A DNA stretch of 64,000 bases, from the IMG/VR virus record IMGVR_UViG_2706796644_000001, positions 96,001 through 160,000 of that record. One strand, given 5' to 3'. Positions within the stretch are counted from its first letter, which is position 1; every line of letters starts with the position of its first letter. Origin of the DNA: a virus (lineage: Duplodnaviria; Caudoviricetes). Under the pieces are notes generated by a model. That model was not told the origin of the DNA. It did not search any database and saw only the letters and a list, made by a program, of their open reading frames with translations. The translations under genes were made by a program, and so were the position numbers. Of the stretch, positions 6,078-50,258 are shown one piece after another.

Positions 6078-6401
6078 ATGGCTTCCGAAAATGCAACCGA
6101 TATCGTAAATAAGATATTTGCTGATGATAAGGCAGATGCGATTGATGCAATTAACAACGCTTTAGGCGCATCATCTTACGATTTGATTCAGCAAAAGAAA
6201 CTTGAGTTTGCTCAGAGTTGGGGATTTAACCCCGATGATACTGCTCAAGCAGTTGCTGATGAAATTACTGATAATCTTCCAGATGCCTCTGACACCCCAA
6301 CGGATGTAGAGATTGACGGTAGACTACCAGAAGATCCACCAGAAGCATCTATTGAAAACGATGTAAATCCAGAGGAACCTACAGATGAAACTGATCAGTG
6401 A
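6078..6401 (+). CDS. Acidic protein at the prohead-core position (gp67/gp68-like)
   Basis: Very acidic, lies between gp20 and gp21, late box upstream. Confidence 0.55.
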   Translation: MASENATDIVNKIFADDKADAIDAINNALGASSYDLIQQKKLEFAQSWGFNPDDTAQAVADEITDNLPDASDTPTDVEIDGRLPEDPPEASIENDVNPEEPTDETDQ

Positions 6402-7032
6402 AGAAATTCTAAATGTTAACTTCCTTGCAGAAGAAACTGAGGATGGGAAAAAATCCCACTTCATTGAAGGAGTTTTTCTGCAAGGTGGAATCAAAAATCG
6501 CAACGGAAGATACTACCCCGTTGAAACACTTTCTCGCGAAGTTGCTAAATATGATGAGAACTTCATTAGCAAAGGACGCGCTCTTGGTGAACTAGGCCAT
6601 CCCGATGGTCCCTCTATCAATCTTGATAGGGTATCACACAAGATCGTTAATCTTGCACAAGAAGGTAATAACTTTATCGGTAAAGCTAAACTGCTTGATA
6701 CCCCTATGGGTAACATTGCAAAGTCACTTTTAGATGAAGGTGTTAAACTTGGTGTTTCTTCTAGAGGAATGGGTTCCATTCGTAAGGAAGAAGACATGGC
6801 AATCGTAGAGGATGACTTTATGCTTGCTACAGCTGCCGACATTGTAGCAGATCCGTCTGCTCCTGATGCATTTGTTGATGGAATTATGGAAGGCAAAGAA
6901 TGGGTTTGGGATAATGGATTGCTCAAAGAGGCACATATTGCCAAAATGAAGCGAGAAATTGACCAGGCAACCATCATCAATATCCAAGAGCGCAAAGTTT
7001 CCGCGTTCAAAACCTTTTTACAAAGTTTGTAA
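6385..7032 (+). CDS. gp21: Prohead core protease
   Basis: NRNGRYYP, ALGELGHP, GVSSRGMGS, DIVADPSAPDA. Confidence 0.97.
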   Translation: MKLISEEILNVNFLAEETEDGKKSHFIEGVFLQGGIKNRNGRYYPVETLSREVAKYDENFISKGRALGELGHPDGPSINLDRVSHKIVNLAQEGNNFIGKAKLLDTPMGNIAKSLLDEGVKLGVSSRGMGSIRKEEDMAIVEDDFMLATAADIVADPSAPDAFVDGIMEGKEWVWDNGLLKEAHIAKMKREIDQATIINIQERKVSAFKTFLQSL

Positions 7033-7058: not shown

Positions 7059-8111
7059 ATGCTGACTACAGGAGATTCAAACATGTCCGATATCCGCGAC
7101 GTAGAATTTGAAGCACAGATGGCTGAAGATGTTGCAACTGGTGTCGCTGCTATCAAGAAAGGCGCGAAACCAGGTGAGAATATTGACACGTCTGGTGCAA
7201 AGTCCACCTCTATTGGTGGCACCGATAACAAGACCGAAGAGGGAGCAAAAGGCACATCAAATCTTGGTGCTAAAGCTTCTGCCCCCGTTAGTGTAGAAGG
7301 AGACAAGTCTATTAAGACTAAACCTTCTGACGCATCATCTAAAATGGAGGACGTAGAGGAAGATGGCGAAGAAACAATCGCTGAAGCCCAGTACGACTTT
7401 AGTGAAGATGTTAACGCTCTTGTCGCTGGTGAAGAACTCTCAGAAGACTTCAGAGAGCGAGCAGTAACAATCTTTGAGGCAGCAGTAACCGCTAAGGTTA
7501 ATGCTGAAGTTGCTGCAGTACAAGAAGCATTTGAGGCTACTCTAACCGAACAGGTTGAGGAAATCAAAACAGAATTGGCCACCAAAGTAGACGACTACCT
7601 GTCTTATGCCGCCCAACAGTGGATGGAGGAAAATACCCTCGCTGTAGAGCATGGCGTTAAGAATGAAATTGCAGAGTCGTTCATGGTTGGCCTCAAGGCT
7701 CTTTTCGCGGAGCACCATGTTGGTGTTCCAGAAGAGAAGTTTAACCTGCTTGATGGCATGGTTGAACAAATTGATGACATGGAAGGAAAACTCAACGAGC
7801 AAATTGAGTCCAATATTTCTTTGAATAAGAGAATTGGAGATTTTGTTAAGATGGAAATTGTGAACGATTGCGCTGTAGGTTTAACCGAGACGCAAAAGGA
7901 GAAGCTCGCTTCTCTGGCAGAAGGTGTTGAGTTTGAGAGTGAAGAAGGTTTTCATAAGAAAATCACTACTATTAAGGAGTCATACTTCACTAGGAAGGAA
8001 TCTGCTACTGTAGATCCTACTGAAGATGTACAACCCTTGGTAGAGGAGACCCAGTATAATGGTCCGATGGGCGCTTATGTTGATGCCCTGAGCCGCTGGT
8101 CCCAATCGTAA
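7059..8111 (+). CDS. gp22: Prohead scaffolding protein (start may be 7083)
   Basis: Acidic coiled coil, IFEAAV, KVDDYLSY; lies between gp21 and gp23. Confidence 0.93.
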   Translation: MLTTGDSNMSDIRDVEFEAQMAEDVATGVAAIKKGAKPGENIDTSGAKSTSIGGTDNKTEEGAKGTSNLGAKASAPVSVEGDKSIKTKPSDASSKMEDVEEDGEETIAEAQYDFSEDVNALVAGEELSEDFRERAVTIFEAAVTAKVNAEVAAVQEAFEATLTEQVEEIKTELATKVDDYLSYAAQQWMEENTLAVEHGVKNEIAESFMVGLKALFAEHHVGVPEEKFNLLDGMVEQIDDMEGKLNEQIESNISLNKRIGDFVKMEIVNDCAVGLTETQKEKLASLAEGVEFESEEGFHKKITTIKESYFTRKESATVDPTEDVQPLVEETQYNGPMGAYVDALSRWSQS

Positions 8112-8151: not shown

Positions 8152-9540
8152 ATGGCTGATCTAAAGCAACTCCAAGAAAAGTGGGCACCTGTGCTTGAGC
8201 ACGAGGCCCTCCCTAAAATTGAAGACTCGCACAAGAAAGCAGTTGTAGCTCAACTGCTTGAGAACCAAGAGTTTGCCGCTCGTGAAGAGCAGCAGATGCT
8301 GACTGAAGCACCTACCATGGCCGCTGGCACTGGTGGTTTCAGTGGTGGTTCTACCGCAACAGGTCCTGTCGCTGGTTTTGACCCCGTTCTGATCTCCCTG
8401 ATCAGGCGCTCCATGCCTCAACTGATCGCCTATGACATCGCAGGCGTTCAACCGATGACTGGTCCTACTGGACTGATCTTCGCAATGCGTTCAAACTACG
8501 GTACAGGTACTAACCCTGCTGCTGCTGGTTATGACGAAGCATTCTTCAACGAGCCTAACGCTGGTTTCTCTGGTGGCGACACGTCTTCCACCTACGATCC
8601 TGGTGCATCAGGTTCTGCCAACAACGATGCAGAAGGCACCAACCCTGCTCTCCTCAATGATGGTTCCCCTGGAACCTATGAGTTGACTGGCGATGCCCAA
8701 GGCATGTCTACCGCCGCTTCTGAAGCACTTGGCGAGTCTGGAACCGACTTCCGTGAGATGGGTTTCAGCATTGAGAAGGTTACTGTAACCGCCAAATCAC
8801 GCGCCCTGAAGGCTGAGTACAGTCTTGAGCTTGCTCAGGACCTCAAGGCAATTCATGGTTTGGATGCCGAGACCGAGCTGAGCAACATCCTCAGCACCGA
8901 GATCCTCGCTGAAATCAACCGTGAAGTTGTCCGTACCGTCTATGTAAACGCTGTTGCTGGTGCTCAGAACAACACCGCTTCTGCTGGTATCTTTGACCTT
9001 GACGTTGACTCCAACGGCAGATGGTCTGTTGAGAAGTTCAAAGGACTTCTGTTCCAGATTGAGCGTGATGCTAACGCTATCGGTCAGCAAACTCGTCGCG
9101 GGAAAGGCAACATCCTGATCTGCTCTGCAGACGTTGCTTCTGCCCTTGCGATGGCTGGTGTTCTTGACTACACCCCTGCACTGAACGGCAACAACGGTCT
9201 TATCCCTGATGACACCTCCAGCACCCTGGTTGGTACTCTGAACGGTCGCATTAAGGTCTACGTTGATCCTTACTCTGCTAACGTAAGTGACAAGCACTTC
9301 TATGTTGCTGGTTATAAGGGTTCTAGCGCCTATGACGCTGGTCTCTTCTACTGCCCATATGTACCCCTCCAGCAGGTTCGTGCAATCAACCCTGACACCT
9401 TCCAGCCCAAGATTGGCTTCAAGACTCGCTACGGCATGGTCTCCAATCCTTTCGCTCAAGGTCTTACTCAGGGTTCTGGCGCTCTGACCGCCAACTCTAA
9501 CCGTTACTACCGTCGCGTTCAGGTTGCTAACCTGATGTGA
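8152..9540 (+). CDS. gp23: Major capsid protein
   Basis: KWAPVL, GVQPMTGPTGLIFAMR, SRALKAEYSLELAQDLKAIHGLDAE, FQPKIGFKTRYG. Confidence 0.99.
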   Translation: MADLKQLQEKWAPVLEHEALPKIEDSHKKAVVAQLLENQEFAAREEQQMLTEAPTMAAGTGGFSGGSTATGPVAGFDPVLISLIRRSMPQLIAYDIAGVQPMTGPTGLIFAMRSNYGTGTNPAAAGYDEAFFNEPNAGFSGGDTSSTYDPGASGSANNDAEGTNPALLNDGSPGTYELTGDAQGMSTAASEALGESGTDFREMGFSIEKVTVTAKSRALKAEYSLELAQDLKAIHGLDAETELSNILSTEILAEINREVVRTVYVNAVAGAQNNTASAGIFDLDVDSNGRWSVEKFKGLLFQIERDANAIGQQTRRGKGNILICSADVASALAMAGVLDYTPALNGNNGLIPDDTSSTLVGTLNGRIKVYVDPYSANVSDKHFYVAGYKGSSAYDAGLFYCPYVPLQQVRAINPDTFQPKIGFKTRYGMVSNPFAQGLTQGSGALTANSNRYYRRVQVANLM

Positions 9541-42780: not shown

Positions 42781-43722
42781 ATGCCCAACAAACACCTAGA
42801 GCATCCAGAAGACAACATCCTCAACGGGGTGAACCCTTATGATGTCTTGGATTCTATGGTGAATTTTGATAAGGTCACTACTAAGTGGGACGGTGCTCCT
42901 GCCATTGTGTTTGGATACAATGAAGGTAAGTGGTTTGTTGGCACTAAGAGTGTATTCAATAAGAAGAAAGTCCTAATCAATTATAGTGTTTCTGATATTG
43001 TCAAGAACCACACAGGTAACGTTGCTCAGATACTAACTGCATGTTTCTATGCACTTCCTCGTACATGCCGTGGAATTTATCAAGCAGACTTCATTGGGTT
43101 TGGTGGAAACCTTTACTACAAACCTAATACAGTACTGTATCTCTTCCCAGAGATTATGAATCAGGATGTAATTGTTGCTCCTCATACTCTGTACAAAGAG
43201 ATATCTCCAACAGCACAACAGTATCCTCTTGATCATGTGGTTGTTCCTGGAACACCTATCCATAACAATAAGTATCGCTTCCTAAGACACAAAGCATCGT
43301 TGGTAGTTCCTAAGCGTGCTCGTCTATTGTCTCAGGCAGCAAAACTTCTGATTCCTTTCTGTAAATTTCCTAAGGGCGATACTTCTACTAGTGCTACTTG
43401 TTCCATGCACATCAAGAAGCATGTCAACAAATTTGTTCGTGCTGGTTATATTCCTAGTGCCTCAGAATTGTACAATACTTTGGACGATAAATATAAGCAG
43501 GAAGTTAATACCATGACTTTCCGTTTATATCATATTATCCTGAAATTAAAAGATATCCTGCTCTCCTGTGGCGTAGCAGATGAGCCCGTAGAATGTTACA
43601 TTGAAGGTCAACCAATCAATCATGAGGGGTTTGTTCTTACTGGTAAGCACTCTGTGAAATTGGTCAATCGTTTGGAATTCAGTCAGGCAAACTTTAACTC
43701 AAATAAGAATTGGAATAAATGA
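42781..43722 (+). CDS. Conserved phage protein with ligase-type nucleotidyltransferase motifs
   Basis: KWDG, YQADF, HEGFV, VKLV; promoter CTGTCA - 17 nt - TATACT at 42729-42757. Confidence 0.55.
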   Translation: MPNKHLEHPEDNILNGVNPYDVLDSMVNFDKVTTKWDGAPAIVFGYNEGKWFVGTKSVFNKKKVLINYSVSDIVKNHTGNVAQILTACFYALPRTCRGIYQADFIGFGGNLYYKPNTVLYLFPEIMNQDVIVAPHTLYKEISPTAQQYPLDHVVVPGTPIHNNKYRFLRHKASLVVPKRARLLSQAAKLLIPFCKFPKGDTSTSATCSMHIKKHVNKFVRAGYIPSASELYNTLDDKYKQEVNTMTFRLYHIILKLKDILLSCGVADEPVECYIEGQPINHEGFVLTGKHSVKLVNRLEFSQANFNSNKNWNK

Positions 43723-44888
43723 AAAAGTTTAGCGACTTCTTATCCGAAGCAGCAAAGTCACGAGCGTCGGATGAAGCACAAAAGAGAGGACTAGAGCATG
43801 TTGGTTATGGTTACTACGGTCTTGCCGATGGTACTGTAACTCACCGATCTCTTAACGGTAAGTTGGTAGAACTTTCTAAGGATCAGCAGGCAGCTAAGAA
43901 TGGGCAACCACCAGCACAAGAATCAGAACCCCAGTCTACAGAAGGCGAAGGTGAGGGCGGAAAAGGTGCGGTGTCTATTACTTTTGGAAGATTCAATCCA
44001 CCTACTATCGGTCATCAAAAACTCATTGATCGTGTAGCACAATCTGCTAAGGGTGGTGAGTATAAAGTATATCCATCAAGGTCTCAAGATCCTAAAAAGA
44101 ATCCTATTGATCCTGAGACTAAGGTGCATTACATGCGTCAGATGTATCCTGATCATGCCCATGCCATCACTAATAATGAAGAGTATAAGACTATCTTTGA
44201 TGTGCTAAAAGGTTTATATAGTGAAGGATATAGTGAAGTTAATATTGTAGTTGGTGGTGATCGTGTTGCTGAGTTTGATAACCTTGCCAATAAATATAAT
44301 GGTAAACTGTATGAGTTTGAAGAGATCAATGTAGTATCTGCTGGTGATAGAGATCCAGATTCTGATGGTGTAGATGGTATGTCTGCATCTAAGATGCGTA
44401 AAGCAGCAGCAGACAATGACTTTGCTACTTTCCGTTCTGGTATTCCTGAAGAACTAACTGATAAAGAAACAAAAGAACTCTTTAATGAAGTTAGATCTTC
44501 CATGCAAATGGAATCCTTTGAGGATTTTGCAGATGCATCTTATGTTTTACATGAGATTGCACCTAAATTAGATGAGAAATCTCTCAGAGAACACTACTAT
44601 AATAGTAATGCTTTCCCCGTAGGATCATTCATTGAGAATGTAAATACAGGAATTATCGGTAAGGTTGTAAACCGTGGTGCTAATTATGTCATATATATTG
44701 ATGAGCATGATACTGTCTATAGAGGATGGTTGAAAGATCTCACCGAGAAAAATGATATTCATGGGTTTGATTTTACTCCTCAAGGACTAATAGGAACAAG
44801 TGAACTATCTCAGTCAGTTGTCAAAATGACACCTGGACAATTCATACAAAAGATAAATAAAAGAAATAAGGTCGCTGCCAAGACATGA
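43719..44888 (+). CDS. Cytidyltransferase-family (HIGH Rossmann) nucleotidyltransferase
   Basis: TFGRFNPPTIGH, VVGGDR, GMSASKMR. Confidence 0.88.
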   Translation: MKKFSDFLSEAAKSRASDEAQKRGLEHVGYGYYGLADGTVTHRSLNGKLVELSKDQQAAKNGQPPAQESEPQSTEGEGEGGKGAVSITFGRFNPPTIGHQKLIDRVAQSAKGGEYKVYPSRSQDPKKNPIDPETKVHYMRQMYPDHAHAITNNEEYKTIFDVLKGLYSEGYSEVNIVVGGDRVAEFDNLANKYNGKLYEFEEINVVSAGDRDPDSDGVDGMSASKMRKAAADNDFATFRSGIPEELTDKETKELFNEVRSSMQMESFEDFADASYVLHEIAPKLDEKSLREHYYNSNAFPVGSFIENVNTGIIGKVVNRGANYVIYIDEHDTVYRGWLKDLTEKNDIHGFDFTPQGLIGTSELSQSVVKMTPGQFIQKINKRNKVAAKT

Positions 44889-46675
44889 ACCTCAACGAAC
44901 TACCAGACATGACCGACGCCTTACGGCAGGTCTATGAAAAGAAAAACAATGATGGCAATCTTGCCAATAATGCTGTCCCTTATGACAAGGTAACTAAAGC
45001 TGATATCATCACAGGTGCCAAAGGCAAGGATGAGCAAGGCGGAAAAAAGAAACCTAAGGGTCATGACTGCGCCAAACAGGTAAAGTATGAAGGTAAGGAG
45101 TACTCAGTTATTCCCGAAGCACATACTCTCTTGGAAGATGGTACTGTAACTCATTACGATATTGAAGATGAGGAGTACATCTATGAGAACGTTCCTGTTG
45201 AAGATCTTGAGATTCTGATTTCTGAGAAGCACGAGCACTTCGCCAACTATGATAAGAACGCTGAGGTTCTTGGTGAAGCAATCACCAGTGAAAAGGGTAA
45301 AGCAAAACTGAAATCTATGCTTGATGCTCGCACCACTGCTGCTGGTAGAGCAAAATCAGGTAAAGGTCAAAACGTTAAAGATATTCAGCATATTGGTCGT
45401 GCTAATGTTGATGGTCTCGGAGGAACACCACCTAACCGAAAAACTGCTAAAAATCCAATTAAGTCTAGGCATTATGGTGGAACTGGAAACAAAGCAGCAA
45501 AAAGAGCAGACGCCTTAACCAAGAAAGAAGAGGTTGAATTTGATGAGGCAATGTCATCTTACGATAAGAATCGTAAGAGAGCAGCACAAAGAGCAGCAGA
45601 CAGAAACGCAGCAAGAGCAGCAGGTAAAACTGGTGTAGTCCCTGGTGTGGGTTATGTAACTGCTAGAAAAGAGAAAGAAACATACACTGACGAGAAAGGA
45701 ACTGTCCGTCATAAGTCTGGTGCTAAGAACGAAGCATTTGCATTCTCAGAAGCAGACTTTGCTGAGTTGGAAACTCTTGGAGCAGAGATTGATGCACTGA
45801 CTGATGAGCAACTCATTGATGTCATGGAAGAAATCATTCTTGAGATGGCACAAGATGATCAAGACTTGATTGAAATCTGTGAGCATCTTGAGACTGTTGA
45901 AGTCTTGGACGAAAGAATGGATCCTAAGGAGATCCAACGTCGTAGAGATCAGGCAAAGGATAGACTATCCACTGGTGCATCCATGAAGAAGGCAGCAGCA
46001 AAATCTGATTCTGCTCCTGCTTCTGCTGGTCCTTCCCGTATGGATCGTCTGAAGAGTGCTGCTAAGAAAGCAGGTAGTGCTATTAAATCTGGTGCTAAGA
46101 AGGTTGGTAAGAAGGCAGTACAGACTGCTGGTAAAGTTGCTGGTGAATTCTCTGCATCCAAAGAGAAGCAGAAGTCTGCATCAATGGAGAGAGAACCTAA
46201 GGAACCAAAAGAAGCACCTAAGAAATCATCTGGTGTAACAAGATCTACAGTACCTTCTAGTAGTGCTGGCGGTGGCGGATCATCGTCTGGTGGCGGGAGT
46301 AGTGAGAGTGGTAGCACACGTAAGGCCGTTGGTGGTGCGTTGAGAAAAGTTGGTTCACTTCTTAAGAAGGGAGTCAAGAAGGCAGTTGGTAAGACATCAC
46401 GTCTGGTATCCAAGGGTAGCGATAAACTCGCCAAGCGTCTCGGTGAAGAGTATGATGAGATTGCAAGTCTCTATGAGTCTGGACTGTTTACTATTGAAGA
46501 GATTGAGAACATCGTAGAGGAGAAGAAGCCTTTGCCTAAGAACAAAATGTTCCGTAAGGCAGGTAACCTAGGTCGTGAAGTTGTAAGTCCTTCTGTGACT
46601 GATGACCAGCGTCAAAAAGCATATGATCGTTCTAAGAAGATCGTTAAGACCTTGAACAAGGAGAACCAAAAGTGA
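44885..46675 (+). CDS. Modular acidic/basic protein, probable internal head protein
   Basis: Late box at 44852; alternating acidic spacers and Lys/Arg-rich blocks. Confidence 0.65.
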   Translation: MNLNELPDMTDALRQVYEKKNNDGNLANNAVPYDKVTKADIITGAKGKDEQGGKKKPKGHDCAKQVKYEGKEYSVIPEAHTLLEDGTVTHYDIEDEEYIYENVPVEDLEILISEKHEHFANYDKNAEVLGEAITSEKGKAKLKSMLDARTTAAGRAKSGKGQNVKDIQHIGRANVDGLGGTPPNRKTAKNPIKSRHYGGTGNKAAKRADALTKKEEVEFDEAMSSYDKNRKRAAQRAADRNAARAAGKTGVVPGVGYVTARKEKETYTDEKGTVRHKSGAKNEAFAFSEADFAELETLGAEIDALTDEQLIDVMEEIILEMAQDDQDLIEICEHLETVEVLDERMDPKEIQRRRDQAKDRLSTGASMKKAAAKSDSAPASAGPSRMDRLKSAAKKAGSAIKSGAKKVGKKAVQTAGKVAGEFSASKEKQKSASMEREPKEPKEAPKKSSGVTRSTVPSSSAGGGGSSSGGGSSESGSTRKAVGGALRKVGSLLKKGVKKAVGKTSRLVSKGSDKLAKRLGEEYDEIASLYESGLFTIEEIENIVEEKKPLPKNKMFRKAGNLGREVVSPSVTDDQRQKAYDRSKKIVKTLNKENQK

Positions 46676-47736
46676 TGCTAAACTTTAATGCATACTTGGA
46701 GGAAAAGAAATCCAAGATTAAGCTCAACCCTAAGAAGGATGATCTTATGGAAAAGTGCTGCGATAAGACAGGTGAAGCAGAGTGTAAATGTGAAGACAAG
46801 ACACCTGCACAAAAATCAGTTGCAGGTAAAGGTAAAATGTGTCCTAAGTGCGAAGGCAAAGGATGCAAGCATTGTGGTGGCACAGGCTACCATGATGAAG
46901 ATGGCGAAGGTGCCGACATGAGCGAAGCGAAAAAGAAAGACGATTCTTATCTGGAGGTGGACCCCAAGAAGCGTCAAAAGAATAATGAGAAAGCTCGTAA
47001 AGAGATGGACAAAGTTCCATCCCAAAAAAATCCTCACTTTGAATCTACAGGAGACCAAGCGTATGGCAGTCAAGAAGAAGTTTCAGAAGAAAGCACAGAA
47101 GAAGTCGCAGAAACTGAAAACACACTCTTGACATTTGCCGAACTCTATAAGGGTAAGCACGGTCAGTCTGAGAAAGAGTATCAAGACGGTCGCTCACAGG
47201 GCGGCAAGATGGTCTCTGGTGACTCTAAAGGTAGCGGTGCAAAATACTCTCATGGTAGAAGAGTTGACGACGGTGGTGCTGGTCCACAACCTGCTGGTGG
47301 TTCTAAGAAACCAAAGGCACAAGGTAGAATGGACAAAGGTGGTCGTGCCGAACTGCAAATGCGTAAGGCAAACCTGAAAGCAAAGAATGAATCAATGGAT
47401 TACCTTAAGGATAATCTTGTTGATGCTGCGTTTGAACTCTATGAGCGTACACGTTATGCTAAAGAGACTGGTAAGGATCCTCAGACTGGTAAACCATCCG
47501 AGAAGGGTGGTACTATCAAACCTGGATCTGCTATGTCAAAGGTTCGTAAGAGTCTTGCTGGTCAGGGTTTGATGTCTTCCAGAAAGAAAGCGATTCAACC
47601 TCAGGGTAAGAAGAAAGAAAAGGGCAAGAAAGGTTATGAAGGTCCAACACCCGTTGATAAGATCAAGGGTAATCTTTCACGCAAGAGAGCACCTAAACCT
47701 AATCCTTACAAAGCAAGACCTGGCGAATCGGATTGA
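46672..47736 (+). CDS. Lys/Gly-rich modular protein with CxxCxGxG repeats, probable internal head protein
   Basis: MLNFNAYLEE leader, CPKCEGKGCKHCGGTG, basic modules. Confidence 0.65.
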   Translation: MMLNFNAYLEEKKSKIKLNPKKDDLMEKCCDKTGEAECKCEDKTPAQKSVAGKGKMCPKCEGKGCKHCGGTGYHDEDGEGADMSEAKKKDDSYLEVDPKKRQKNNEKARKEMDKVPSQKNPHFESTGDQAYGSQEEVSEESTEEVAETENTLLTFAELYKGKHGQSEKEYQDGRSQGGKMVSGDSKGSGAKYSHGRRVDDGGAGPQPAGGSKKPKAQGRMDKGGRAELQMRKANLKAKNESMDYLKDNLVDAAFELYERTRYAKETGKDPQTGKPSEKGGTIKPGSAMSKVRKSLAGQGLMSSRKKAIQPQGKKKEKGKKGYEGPTPVDKIKGNLSRKRAPKPNPYKARPGESD

Positions 47737-47969: not shown

Positions 47970-47998
47970 AAACATGACCCCTTAGGGGGTCTGTTTTT
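47970..47998 (+). terminator. Intrinsic terminator
   Basis: GACCCC-TTAG-GGGGTC-TGTTTTT, directly followed by the late box TATAAATA. Confidence 0.8.
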
Positions 47999-48034
47999 AT
48001 AAATAAATATATCGGAATTAATACGGAGTAACCC

Positions 48035-48655
48035 ATGTCTCTTTACGGGAGAACTGACAGTAACGCAAATAAGACTCAAGCAGGACTCGCCCGTGGTAAC
48101 GGCAGTGGCTCTGCTACCGAGACTATTGTTTTTATTGACGCTGCTGAAGCAGCATTGAACGAGAATGCTTCTCGTGGTATCACTGGCCCTGGTTGGTGGG
48201 CATATAGGACCTACACCGATGGCGCTGGTAATACTCGTCACAAGGCAGAGTGTCTTGCCTTCATCAGCAACCCTGATGGCACTGAGTCACAAGCAGATGA
48301 CACGATTGCAGCAGACGTTGCATCGGCAGTAACCATCTCTGCACAACCTGCAGCATCTACTAGTTCCTCTGGCGCTGGTACATTCACCCTTAGCACTTCT
48401 ACTACAGGAACACCTGGTGCTCTTGCTTATGTCTGGCAGCGTCAGACTGCAGCAGCAACTACCCGTTGGGTTAACATTGCAGCAGACACTGACACTGGTG
48501 TAACCTATGCAGACTTCACTACTGCGACTCTGGCATACAGTAGTCTCGGTGATGATTCACTTGACGGTTATAAGTACCGTGTCAAGATCACCTCTGCAGG
48601 TGGTACTGAAGAAGTCATCTCTGACGGCGCTGCAACCCTGACCTTTAGTAGCTGA
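48035..48655 (+). CDS. Probable virion structural protein with C-terminal Ig-like domain
   Basis: Late promoter; PGWW...RHKAE; Ig pattern ISAQP...YVWQ...DGYKYRVKI...AATLT. Confidence 0.7.
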   Translation: MSLYGRTDSNANKTQAGLARGNGSGSATETIVFIDAAEAALNENASRGITGPGWWAYRTYTDGAGNTRHKAECLAFISNPDGTESQADDTIAADVASAVTISAQPAASTSSSGAGTFTLSTSTTGTPGALAYVWQRQTAAATTRWVNIAADTDTGVTYADFTTATLAYSSLGDDSLDGYKYRVKITSAGGTEEVISDGAATLTFSS

Positions 48656-48658
48656 TAA

Positions 48659-49021
48659 ATGAAATTTGGTGAACTGAACGAAGACAACAGCGTCATGTTC
48701 GCCATCAAGCATTATGAAAATCCTCAATCAGTAACGAGAGAAGATTTTGATGATGATATGAAACGCTTTAAGTACCTCAAGAGATTATTCAAGAGGTACT
48801 TACGTGGGGGTAGTCTAAGATCCCATCTTATTATCAATCACTTGGTCATACTTTATAATGTATTTGATGACGCCGCGACCCCACTATTATTTTTCAAATT
48901 AGAAAAAGAATATTGGCCACTACTTAAAGCATTTTTATATTGGATGAATAGGTATCCAGAATGCTGGATGGAATCTCTGGAAGAAGATCCAGACATAAAA
49001 GAAATACTAGATAAGATATGA
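48659..49021 (+). CDS. Conserved T4-like hypothetical protein
   Basis: FAIKHYENP, RFKYLKRL, LIINHLVILYNVF. Confidence 0.8.
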   Translation: MKFGELNEDNSVMFAIKHYENPQSVTREDFDDDMKRFKYLKRLFKRYLRGGSLRSHLIINHLVILYNVFDDAATPLLFFKLEKEYWPLLKAFLYWMNRYPECWMESLEEDPDIKEILDKI

Positions 49022-49845
49022 TTAACGAGTCACCTACAATGAGTGCTGGTACTGGCGGGTTTAGTGGTAGTTCTGCTGCTACTGGACCAGTTGCTGGGTT
49101 TGATCCTGTATTAGATTTTCGTAAGAAAGCCTTCTCTAAGATTAAAGATCAACCTTATGTTAGTGAGTATCGTAAGCAGAAAAAGAATAAGAAGACAGTA
49201 AAGGAGAATGTTTCCAGACTGTTGCAGTATAAAGTAACGATCCCTGAGGTCGGTGAGACTATCATCTATGCTAGTTCCCCATCAGAATTGAGACAGAAGA
49301 TGCGTCTTCTTATCAATCCTCGTTACAGGGGCGATGTTGATATTGAAAGAGTATTCCCTGGAGCAGCTGCTAAGTTTTATATGGACAAGAGAATGAAGGC
49401 TATGAGAAATATTCCTGAGGAAGCAGATCCAGCTGATGCTCAAATGAAAAAGCAACTTGCAACGAAGCAAGTACAGCAAAAGATTGCGATTGAGAAAAAG
49501 AAGATCGCTCTTAAGAAGCAGGAAATGCAAAAAGCATTGTCAACTAAAGTAGCATCTATGAAACGTGCTGCTTCTGGTGGTGCAGGACCTAAGTCTGCTA
49601 CTGAATCATTCACACCTTCTGGTAATCTTGCTAAGATTAGTCAGTGTGCTGAAAATAAATGTGCTGGTGCTATCAAGTTTCTCAATGGAGAAGAGTTTGA
49701 AGTAACTCCAGATGTTGCTAGTAAAGTAATGCAGGGGTTTGGTTCCCTGTCACAAAAAAGAAACCAATCAAAGTTTAGTAATGCCTGTGCAGAATCTCAA
49801 GATTCTTTCAACCGTGTCTTGTCCTTCTGTAGCGGAGATAACTAG
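49018..49845 (+). CDS. Hypothetical protein starting with a copy of the gp23 N-arm
   Basis: Residues 1-32 are 26/32 identical to gp23 residues 49-80. Confidence 0.8.
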   Translation: MINESPTMSAGTGGFSGSSAATGPVAGFDPVLDFRKKAFSKIKDQPYVSEYRKQKKNKKTVKENVSRLLQYKVTIPEVGETIIYASSPSELRQKMRLLINPRYRGDVDIERVFPGAAAKFYMDKRMKAMRNIPEEADPADAQMKKQLATKQVQQKIAIEKKKIALKKQEMQKALSTKVASMKRAASGGAGPKSATESFTPSGNLAKISQCAENKCAGAIKFLNGEEFEVTPDVASKVMQGFGSLSQKRNQSKFSNACAESQDSFNRVLSFCSGDN

Positions 49846-50258
49846 TGGCTTTTGGTCTTGGAAAACTAAACACTCTTGAAGCAAAATTAGATATTTATGA
49901 AGACCTATCCAAGGAGATGTTGGATAAGTTAGAACGCGCCGTAGATAGAATCTCCGAGAATAGTAATAGAGTTGCTATTATGTTGGAGCGTCATGAGAAT
50001 CGCTTGGATGAAAGTGATAGAACTCATGATACCTTAATGAAACTTCTATCAAAAGTTGAACAAAAGATTGATGATGTTGAAAATAAGGTAGGAGAAATTC
50101 AAAAATTTAGGTGGGTGACTGTAGGAATTGCCGTTGCTGTTGCGACAGTTTTCCAACTGTCAACACCCCTCTCCAGGTTGACACCATCTGATGTAGGTTC
50201 ATCGCAGGTGTCGTATGAACTACATAGAGACCAAGTACGTCAACCTTCTGTCGTCTAG
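49845..50258 (+). CDS. Coiled-coil protein with C-terminal TM
   Basis: Heptad pattern, then KFRWVTVGIAVAVA. Confidence 0.7.
   Translation: MAFGLGKLNTLEAKLDIYEDLSKEMLDKLERAVDRISENSNRVAIMLERHENRLDESDRTHDTLMKLLSKVEQKIDDVENKVGEIQKFRWVTVGIAVAVATVFQLSTPLSRLTPSDVGSSQVSYELHRDQVRQPSVV

Follow-up and report, generated by a model that had tools for sequence, protein, structure and literature searches.

A basic cyanophage protein begins with a copy of the gp23 N-fist, probably a capsid-docking tag

The DNA analysed here is a 64,000-nucleotide stretch of a Caudoviricetes genome (positions 96,001 to 160,000 of IMG/VR record IMGVR_UViG_2706796644_000001; hereafter, the window), in which gp23, the major capsid protein, is encoded and, 40 kb away from it, open reading frame 275 (ORF275), a protein with an isoelectric point (pI) of 9.8 and a net charge of +19. 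An ungapped alignment pairs residues 1-32 of ORF275 with gp23 residues 49-80 (26/32 identical, 29/32 positive; pairwise BLASTP E 2e-7), confirming a match pointed out in an earlier note on this DNA, and the phrog_696 profile, which matches ORF275 over its full length (E 6e-133, residues 1-275 on profile positions 1-263), independently matches gp23 at residues 50-80 (E 9.2e-10). On its own, this segment (hereafter, the arm copy) is uncharged to acidic. The rest of the protein had been described in the same note as unlike gp23, and so we found it: beyond residues 1-32 there was no further BLAST similarity to gp23, ORF275 had no Pfam match (and no Gp23 domain) at E ≤ 0.1, and an AlphaFold2 (AF2) model built from a 49-sequence alignment gave no match to an HK97-like fold in Foldseek or VIA, the model itself being weak (predicted template modelling score, pTM, 0.28). 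Pfam and profile searches likewise returned no homology to T4 internal proteins. Judged from its sequence, then, ORF275 is not a major capsid protein, being without a Gp23 domain and resembling gp23 over 32 residues only, nor can it be recognised as a homologue of Soc, Hoc or the T4 internal proteins. Across the whole 179-kb genome, only ORF275 and gp23 carry the motif, with no third copy found; PF07068 matches a single Gp23-family gene there, and no gp24 paralogue was found.

At the DNA level, the copy and the gp23 segment are identical at 68/96 bases, and the 26 identical residues use the same codon in 10 cases and a different one in 16, where independent draws from the window's codon usage would give 11.2 shared codons. 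Codons are thus shared at chance level and the synonymous sites are fully randomised; the similarity is therefore at the protein level and old, which upholds the earlier claim that no recent DNA duplication is involved.

The borders of the copy identify what was copied. By HMMER alignment, window gp23 residues 53-80 correspond to T4 gp23 residues 66 to ~95, and the ORF275 copy starts four residues ahead of the maturation cut and ends exactly where the gp23 N-arm (ISLIRR) begins. As the copy runs from the gp21 cut to the N-arm junction, its borders are those of the mature N-fist, and the alignment therefore places the copied segment as the N-fist of mature gp23 (gp23*; T4 residues 66-91) plus four upstream residues, not the N-arm proper. 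The description in the earlier note, a gp23 cleavage site with the mature N-arm, was right in that the mature N-terminal element is copied and needs correcting in that this element is the N-fist. In T4, the tip of the N-arm is formed by the N-fist (residues 66-91), an unusual element of 25 residues, disordered inside the shell of the unexpanded head and probably directed towards the scaffold; on expansion it goes to the outer surface, where it is ordered, touches four subunits, two in its own capsomer and two in the neighbouring one, and helps to form the Soc site, the N-fists of the five portal-facing gp23 subunits being disordered (PMC7136217, PMC9546572, PMC9958956).

In BFVD, ORF275 has a 100% identical entry, an uncharacterised protein from Synechococcus phage ACG-2014d, the phage to which we assign the window. 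ORF275 belongs to a family whose Syn9 member is gp190 and whose cluster in Sullivan et al. is T4-GC 426. We found this gp190 family in at least 237 cyanomyovirus records (tblastn), and a protein search yielded 528 homologues as cluster representatives (E ≤ 1e-3). The arm copy is the most conserved region of the family, with a mean pairwise identity of 0.81, versus 0.68 for a small alpha/beta domain and 0.46-0.58 elsewhere, and it includes nine invariant positions (G11, G13, G14, F15, G23, P24, A26, D29 and P30). Among orthologues, the gp190 arm has a nonsynonymous rate (dN) of 0.150 and a synonymous rate (dS) of 1.20 (dN/dS about 0.12), similar to gp23's own arm (dN 0.089, dS 0.92). The low dN/dS, together with the highest conservation in the protein, indicates that the arm copy is under purifying selection of its own. 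Met8 (49039-49041) is nearly invariant in the family, and invariant in a smaller 21-sequence alignment, in contrast to the variable residues that precede it; in gp23, a Met at the corresponding position is restricted to the window's clade. Met8 might have a function as a residue or serve as an alternative start codon.

Gene order around the family is constant (gp188-like head protein, DUF7207 (gp189), gp190-family gene, DUF7201 (gp191) and gp61 primase) in the window, in 19 genomes and in S-PM2, P-HM2, S-CAM1, S-RIM32 and Sf-CH1b, these being the annotated slots examined. We paired the gene in the gp190 slot with the gp23 of the same phage for 32 genomes hand-picked from BLAST lists (22 of them for counts of arm forms), mainly complete GenBank genomes, as most related IMG/VR loci are short fragments without gp23. 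Two arm forms occur in both families, 'long' (AGTGGFSGS...) and 'short' (TTG(Y/F)TG.D...). The short gp190 arm was seen only alongside a short gp23 arm (four phages: Syn9, S-MbCM6, P-SSM4 and S-B64), and the long gp23 arm was paired with a long gp190 arm in 7/7 phages and with a short one in none. Individual phages show finer matches: P-HM1 has a unique TNVGPINTPTT motif in both gp23 and the syntenic protein, its gp23 arm being identical to its own slot protein at 19/26 positions and to any other gp23 arm at 12/26 at most or any other gp190 at 11/26 at most; in its sister P-HM2, the two genes have undergone a Pro-to-Gln change at one and the same position (CCT to CAA in one gene, CCA to CAA in the other), and the synonymous sites beside it differ between them; and in S-H38, APTNS.G.TG is common to gp23 and gp190. 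Overall, own pairs averaged 15.8/26 identical residues versus 14.45 for non-own pairs, the own-pair value being reached by 171 of 100,000 label shuffles (phage relatedness inflates this significance, not its direction). Because paralogues that predate phage divergence should be equally similar in own and non-own pairs, this excess points to concerted evolution or co-evolution: in the sequences compared, the arm copy co-varies with its own gp23, and this co-variation is real but partial, appearing in several independent lineages.

Own pairs share codons at about 30-47% of identical residues, versus ~43% by chance (11.2/26, computed for the window pair), and with fractions near chance the exchanges between the gp23 and gp190 loci must be old; identical runs of 15-16 nucleotides between the two genes occur in S-RIM8 and S-SSM7. 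The matched variants appear to arise by short gene conversion or recombination between gp23 and gp190 and then to be kept by selection. One candidate, a gp190-to-gp23 conversion in S-RIM8 (both with ATAGTGGF and PNAG), was rejected, the match being 20/26 to other gp23 arms and 18/26 to gp190 arms.

Virion evidence for the family comes from S-SM1, in one study. In Table S8 of that study (PMC3037559), T4-GC 426, listed as 'Structural protein', is scored as present (Y) in purified S-SM1 virions with 17 peptide counts, compared with 18 each for gp20 and gp3, 13 for gp13, 73 for gp19 and 119 for gp23; the same table gives T4-GC 426 as 'not present' in S-PM2 and 'annotated but not detected' in Syn9. 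We checked the column order of the table on locus annotations (SSM1_195/SSM1_197 are GC 425/426 and S-PM2p148 is GC 537). The slot gene of S-PM2 is S-PM2p150 (T4-GC 844), which has no row in the examined part of Table S8; T4-GC 512, considered as a virion-detected S-PM2 orthologue, was rejected because of its location in the baseplate region. The S-SM1 counts hint at a low to moderate copy number of the gp190 orthologue, a rough estimate because Lys-rich proteins yield few detectable tryptic peptides.

The remainder of ORF275 is modular (Table 1). In the AF2 model, residues 1-28 are disordered (predicted local distance difference test, pLDDT, <50), as expected for a peptide that folds upon binding, and are followed by basic helices (30-56), a small alpha/beta domain (69-131), a single long helix (138-186) and a small C-terminal domain (203-272). 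A Foldseek search of the whole model against the PDB gave nothing at E ≤ 0.001; a fold search of BFVD returned family members and uncharacterised proteins only, the ESM Atlas returned ORF275's own family only, and a wide VIA-align search was dominated by uninformative matches of the long helix (136-194, Z ≤ 5.7); in these whole-model searches, neither the alpha/beta nor the C-terminal domain was matched to a known fold. Most family members are forms of 175-195 residues from which the C-terminal domain is absent; the phrog_4187 slot gene of P-HM1, P-HM2, S-PM2, S-RSM4, S-CAM1 and S-RIM32 has the C-terminal domain and is without the alpha/beta domain; and the S-SSM7 and P-SSM2 slots are left with only a mini-protein of 57-65 residues that joins the arm copy to a poly-Lys tail (phrog_3286). 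All forms, these mini-proteins included, have a basic stretch after the arm copy, and the smallest architecture kept is the arm copy with a basic tail.

The mini-proteins of S-SSM7 (L141:1456-1650) and P-SSM2 (L149:2144-2815), both large cyanomyoviruses, have an arm-like motif and a poly-Lys/Arg tail; the P-SSM2 form occupies the C-terminus of a longer open frame and would require a Met start inside that frame. In P-RSM1, the slot gene is split (NC_021071.1 78280-80445, reverse complement), with a 67-residue frame holding the arm copy and the remainder in another frame past an A-rich Lys run, where no coding sequence is annotated; a frameshift, or else an error in sequencing the homopolymer, accounts for the split.

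Table 1. Features of the window that bear on ORF275 (window coordinates).
Feature	Position	Strand	Remarks
gp21 prohead protease	6385..7032	+	Peptidase_S77
gp22 scaffolding protein	7059..8111	+	T4_CASP; pI 4.3
gp23 major capsid protein	8152..9540	+	Pfam Gp23, E 1.5e-150
gp23 M-L-T-E, putative gp21 maturation site	8296..8307	+	Aligned to T4 L-T-E/A (Glu65/Ala66); PMC7136217
gp23* N-fist, residues 53-80, template of the copy	8308..8391	+	From alignment to T4 gp23
TATAAATA, T4-type late-promoter-like motif	47998..48005	+	37 nucleotides upstream of the head-protein gene
gp188-like head protein (phrog_613)	48035..48655	+	Orthologues in S-SM1 and S-PM2 virions
DUF7207 (Syn9 gp189, T4-GC 198)	48659..49021	+	Cyanophage core gene
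ORF275	49018..49845	+	275 residues; basic virion-protein family Syn9 gp190 / T4-GC 426 / phrog_696
M-I-N-E of ORF275, I-x-E motif matching gp23 M-L-T-E before the cut	49018..49029	+	Clade-specific
Copy of the gp23* N-fist, residues 5-32	49030..49113	+	Predicted disordered alone
Lys/Arg-rich linker, residues 33-66	49114..49215	+	Net charge +8; predicted helical
Conserved small alpha/beta domain, residues 67-132	49216..49413	+	beta-beta-alpha-beta-alpha; without match to a known fold
Long Lys/Gln-rich helix, residues 138-186	49429..49575	+	Predicted; possibly coiled coil
Optional C-terminal domain, residues 203-272	49624..49833	+	In long forms and P-HM1/S-PM2-type homologues
DUF7201 (Syn9 gp191, T4-GC 201)	49845..50258	+	Coiled coil; hydrophobic C-terminal segment

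The genes of the string that starts with the head protein overlap or abut; for example, the DUF7207 stop overlaps the ORF275 start codon (ATGA). In the window and in Syn9, S-PM2, P-HM1 and S-SSM7, the gp188-like gene has a NATAAATA motif, following the late-promoter consensus of PMC2984593, 36-45 nucleotides upstream of it. The motif upstream in these five divergent phages and the gene overlap suggest that the string with ORF275 is probably expressed late, together with a head protein.

On the plus strand of the window, six exact TATAAATA motifs (1280, 7035, 9559, 28133, 38706 and 47998) were found, versus 2.9 expected by chance; several lie just upstream of structural genes (7035 before gp22, 47998 before the head protein and 9559 before a 499-residue open reading frame that is next after gp23). 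A cytidylyltransferase-like protein (43719-44888; Pfam CTP_transf_like) starts with MKKFSDFLSE/A, resembling a T4 capsid-targeting leader, and PMC3037559 reports the cluster to which it belongs, T4-GC 190, among the virion proteins of S-SM1. Between it and the head-protein/gp190 string, directly upstream of the latter, are two open reading frames of 596 and 354 residues (44885-47736) with a very high content of Lys, Gly, Ser and Glu and no match to a Pfam family; possibly these, too, are proteins of the core or associated with the head.

On balance, we take ORF275 to be a strongly basic accessory protein of the virion head that is probably expressed late. Its first ~30 residues, a selectively maintained copy of the N-fist, most likely act as a docking peptide: disordered alone, the copy would fold onto the receptor surface that binds the authentic N-fist, and, once docked, would fix the basic body of the protein to the capsid. 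Going by the comparisons above, it is fairly likely that the copy binds what the real N-fist binds and thereby docks ORF275 to the head, and the partial co-evolution of the copy with the gp23 of the same phage makes a capsid-docking tag, produced by self-mimicry, its probable role. A capsid-arm mimic docking to the head was among the ideas of the earlier note, and it gains support from the conservation of the arm, its low dN/dS, its tracking of gp23 and the S-SM1 detection. Where the copy would dock can be suggested only tentatively; one possibility is the expanded gp23 lattice, at receptor sites without a gp23 N-fist, for example, the five next to the portal. With still more reserve, we suggest that such self-arm mimicry might serve as a capsid address, a free N-fist copy plugging empty sites where the five-fold shell meets the twelve-fold portal, or at other special positions, and riveting the basic protein there, with recurrent micro-conversion and selection keeping the copy matched to gp23.

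Several observations weigh against docking of this kind. The expected tracking of gp23, which stood for P-HM1, P-HM2, S-H38 and the short forms, breaks down in 10/22 phages, S-SM1 included, where a short gp23 arm goes with a long gp190 one, and in the clade of S-PM2, S-RSM4, S-CAM1, S-RIM32 and Sf-CH1b, which has a conserved but different N-terminus with no recognisable copy (...(L/M)NEMMAG.G..L..PPAFVFVNP in the S-PM2 clade, having only (L/M)-N-E in common with its gp23). A search of the S-PM2 genome for a paralogous source of this N-terminus gave only the self-match. If gp23 formed the pentons too, few N-fist receptor sites would be left vacant, and a strongly basic body would be better placed inside, with the DNA, than on the outer surface, the location of the N-fist in T4. 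As to the virion evidence, gp190 went undetected in the older, less sensitive Syn9 virion proteome, and gp21 and gp22 were also found in the S-SM1 preparations (PMC3037559), so prohead carry-over is possible. The earlier note had named loss of the motif, want of co-variation and absence from virions as the outcomes that would tell against a capsid-arm mimic; what we found was partial co-variation and a published detection in S-SM1 virions.

The strongest of the other explanations places the protein in the prohead core. By analogy with T4, the copy would imitate the scaffold-facing part of uncleaved gp23, and the basic ORF275 would co-assemble into the core, stay inside after gp21 digests the scaffold, bind the packaged DNA and perhaps be ejected with it, as the equivalent, in cyanophages, of T4's internal proteins with their capsid-targeting sequence (CTS). 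Before expansion, the N-terminal region of T4 gp23 with residue 66 is inside the head, in probable contact with the core, and the A66D mutation changes head length (PMC9546572); the charge of ORF275 (+19) is opposed to the pI of gp22 (4.3); cyanomyoviruses are without gp67 and gp68 (PMC2984593); the neighbours include the virion-detected cytidylyltransferase with its CTS-like leader and two very basic proteins; the mini-forms consist of the arm and a poly-Lys tail; and P1 DarA-Hdf provide an existing case of capsid-bound, DNA-contacting internal proteins (PMC12810830). Against this, the copy spans the mature element, from the cut to the N-fist/N-arm junction, and not the scaffold-facing delta region (1-52), and the S-SM1 peptide counts are, in a rough comparison, like those of proteins present in 6-12 copies, not in hundreds as the T4 internal proteins are. 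We therefore consider core targeting doubtful and slightly favour docking on the expanded lattice, because the borders of the copy are those of the mature element, the peptide counts resemble those of low-copy proteins, and a receptor on gp23 would most simply explain the joint change of both ligands.

A role in regulating assembly is unlikely. A free copy would here compete with the gp23 N-fists for their receptor sites, delaying or guiding lattice locking or expansion, or marking a special vertex, with presence in the virion incidental or at low copy. The conservation of the arm and its co-variation with gp23 fit this equally well, the N-fist contacts form only on expansion, when they stabilise the shell, and expression of ORF275 is apparently coupled to that of head genes; however, 17 peptide counts in purified virions argue for a stable component, and the conserved basic body and extra domains would be left unexplained.

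Less probable again is a functionless relic, in which part of the 5' region of gp23, duplicated long ago, joined an unrelated gene and owes its continued similarity to nothing more than occasional gene conversion. That the loci exchanged sequence is suggested by the long and short arm forms in both gene families and by the identical runs in S-RIM8 and S-SSM7, but the chance-level synonymous sites of own pairs speak against recent conversion, the arm is the best-conserved part of the protein with a dN/dS of about 0.12, it is kept in the mini-proteins of 57-65 residues, and the parallel change in P-HM1/P-HM2 is point-like, without a shared tract.

The cleavage motif of the copied segment is not conserved across the family. 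Among 120 cluster representatives, the N-terminal prefixes are MTVMTA (33), MINESPTMSA (14), MMTV (13), MTA (8) and MNEEAPTMSA (8), with MNEDAPTM... in four; a hydrophobic-x-E motif before the arm occurs only in the clade that holds the window protein, and most homologues start straight at the arm (MTVMTAG..., MMTVG...). The conserved feature is where the protein starts, no more than a few residues from the point at which mature gp23* begins. In the window's clade, the sequence makes removal of the four residues by cleavage possible. The least probable explanation, which the earlier note had also offered, is that the N-terminus imitates the gp23 cleavage site as a decoy or dedicated gp21 substrate that titrates or times the prohead protease: it would suit the alignment of I2-N3-E4 with gp23 L-T-E, the (L/M)-N-E that the S-PM2 clade keeps in line with gp23 M-L-N-E and the presence of gp21 in the window, but most representatives have no Glu before the arm, four have Asp at the P1 position, only four residues would be cut off, and conservation lies on the P' (arm) side and not on the site itself, the confinement of I-x-E to one clade making a decoy unlikely.

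The results also bear on annotation. The phrog_696 profile carries the label 'major head protein', evidently because of a similarity to gp23 that spans only ~30 residues, and RefSeq repeats the label on family members in NC_008296 (Syn9 gp190), NC_055710, NC_023584, NC_048015, NC_015283, NC_020486 and NC_070964, one family record even being called 'gp23'. This is a misannotation propagated from PHROG and cluster labels, and the present analysis corrects a widespread error.

T4-like cyanophages are among the most abundant ocean viruses. Their heads are without T4 gp24, gp67 and gp68, and a co-evolving copy of a capsid clasp would supply a concrete mechanism for the attachment of accessory proteins. 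If true, self-arm mimicry would be an undescribed way to attach accessory proteins to an HK97-type shell and to handle the symmetry mismatch at the portal; we found no description of an N-fist copy in the gp190 family in the searchable literature, and no T4-like cyanophage capsid in the copy of the PDB searched. The pair is also a clean example from nature of a structural element in concerted evolution with a mimic of itself, and a natural tag of ~30 residues might serve to load or display proteins on such capsids.

Among known systems, the closest is the T4 gp23* N-fist itself: residues 5-32 of ORF275 are identical to the N-fist of their own phage at 24/28 positions, are equally long and start where the mature protein has its N-terminus, and the difference lies in the carrier, a basic non-capsid protein without an HK97 match in a weak model. 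No second carrier of the N-fist is described in the searchable T4 literature. The T4 CTS of IPII and IPIII is likewise a short N-terminal tag on a small basic head protein, near an (L/I)-x-E gp21 site (PMC9958956); however, that tag is ~10 residues long, unrelated to gp23 and cleaved off, whereas the tag of ORF275 is the capsid protein's own arm and would stay on, its cleavage motif not being conserved. A leader of the MKTYQEFIAE type (~10 residues ending in (L/I)-x-E and removed by gp21) is absent from ORF275, which begins with MINE and then the arm copy. DarA-Hdf of phage P1 are accessory head proteins at defined capsid sites that contact DNA, and so plausible functional analogues (PMC12810830). 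They differ in having no sequence relation to ORF275 and no copied arm of a capsid protein. In encapsulins, a short cargo-loading peptide docks a protein onto an HK97-fold shell, and CpmB of SaPI1 imitates the C-terminus of the 80alpha scaffold, docking via a natural assembly contact. By analogy with these systems, ORF275 would work most like a capsid-targeting or anchoring peptide, with the difference that the encapsulin and CpmB peptides imitate or replace cargo or scaffold signals, whereas ORF275 imitates a co-varying part of the shell protein.

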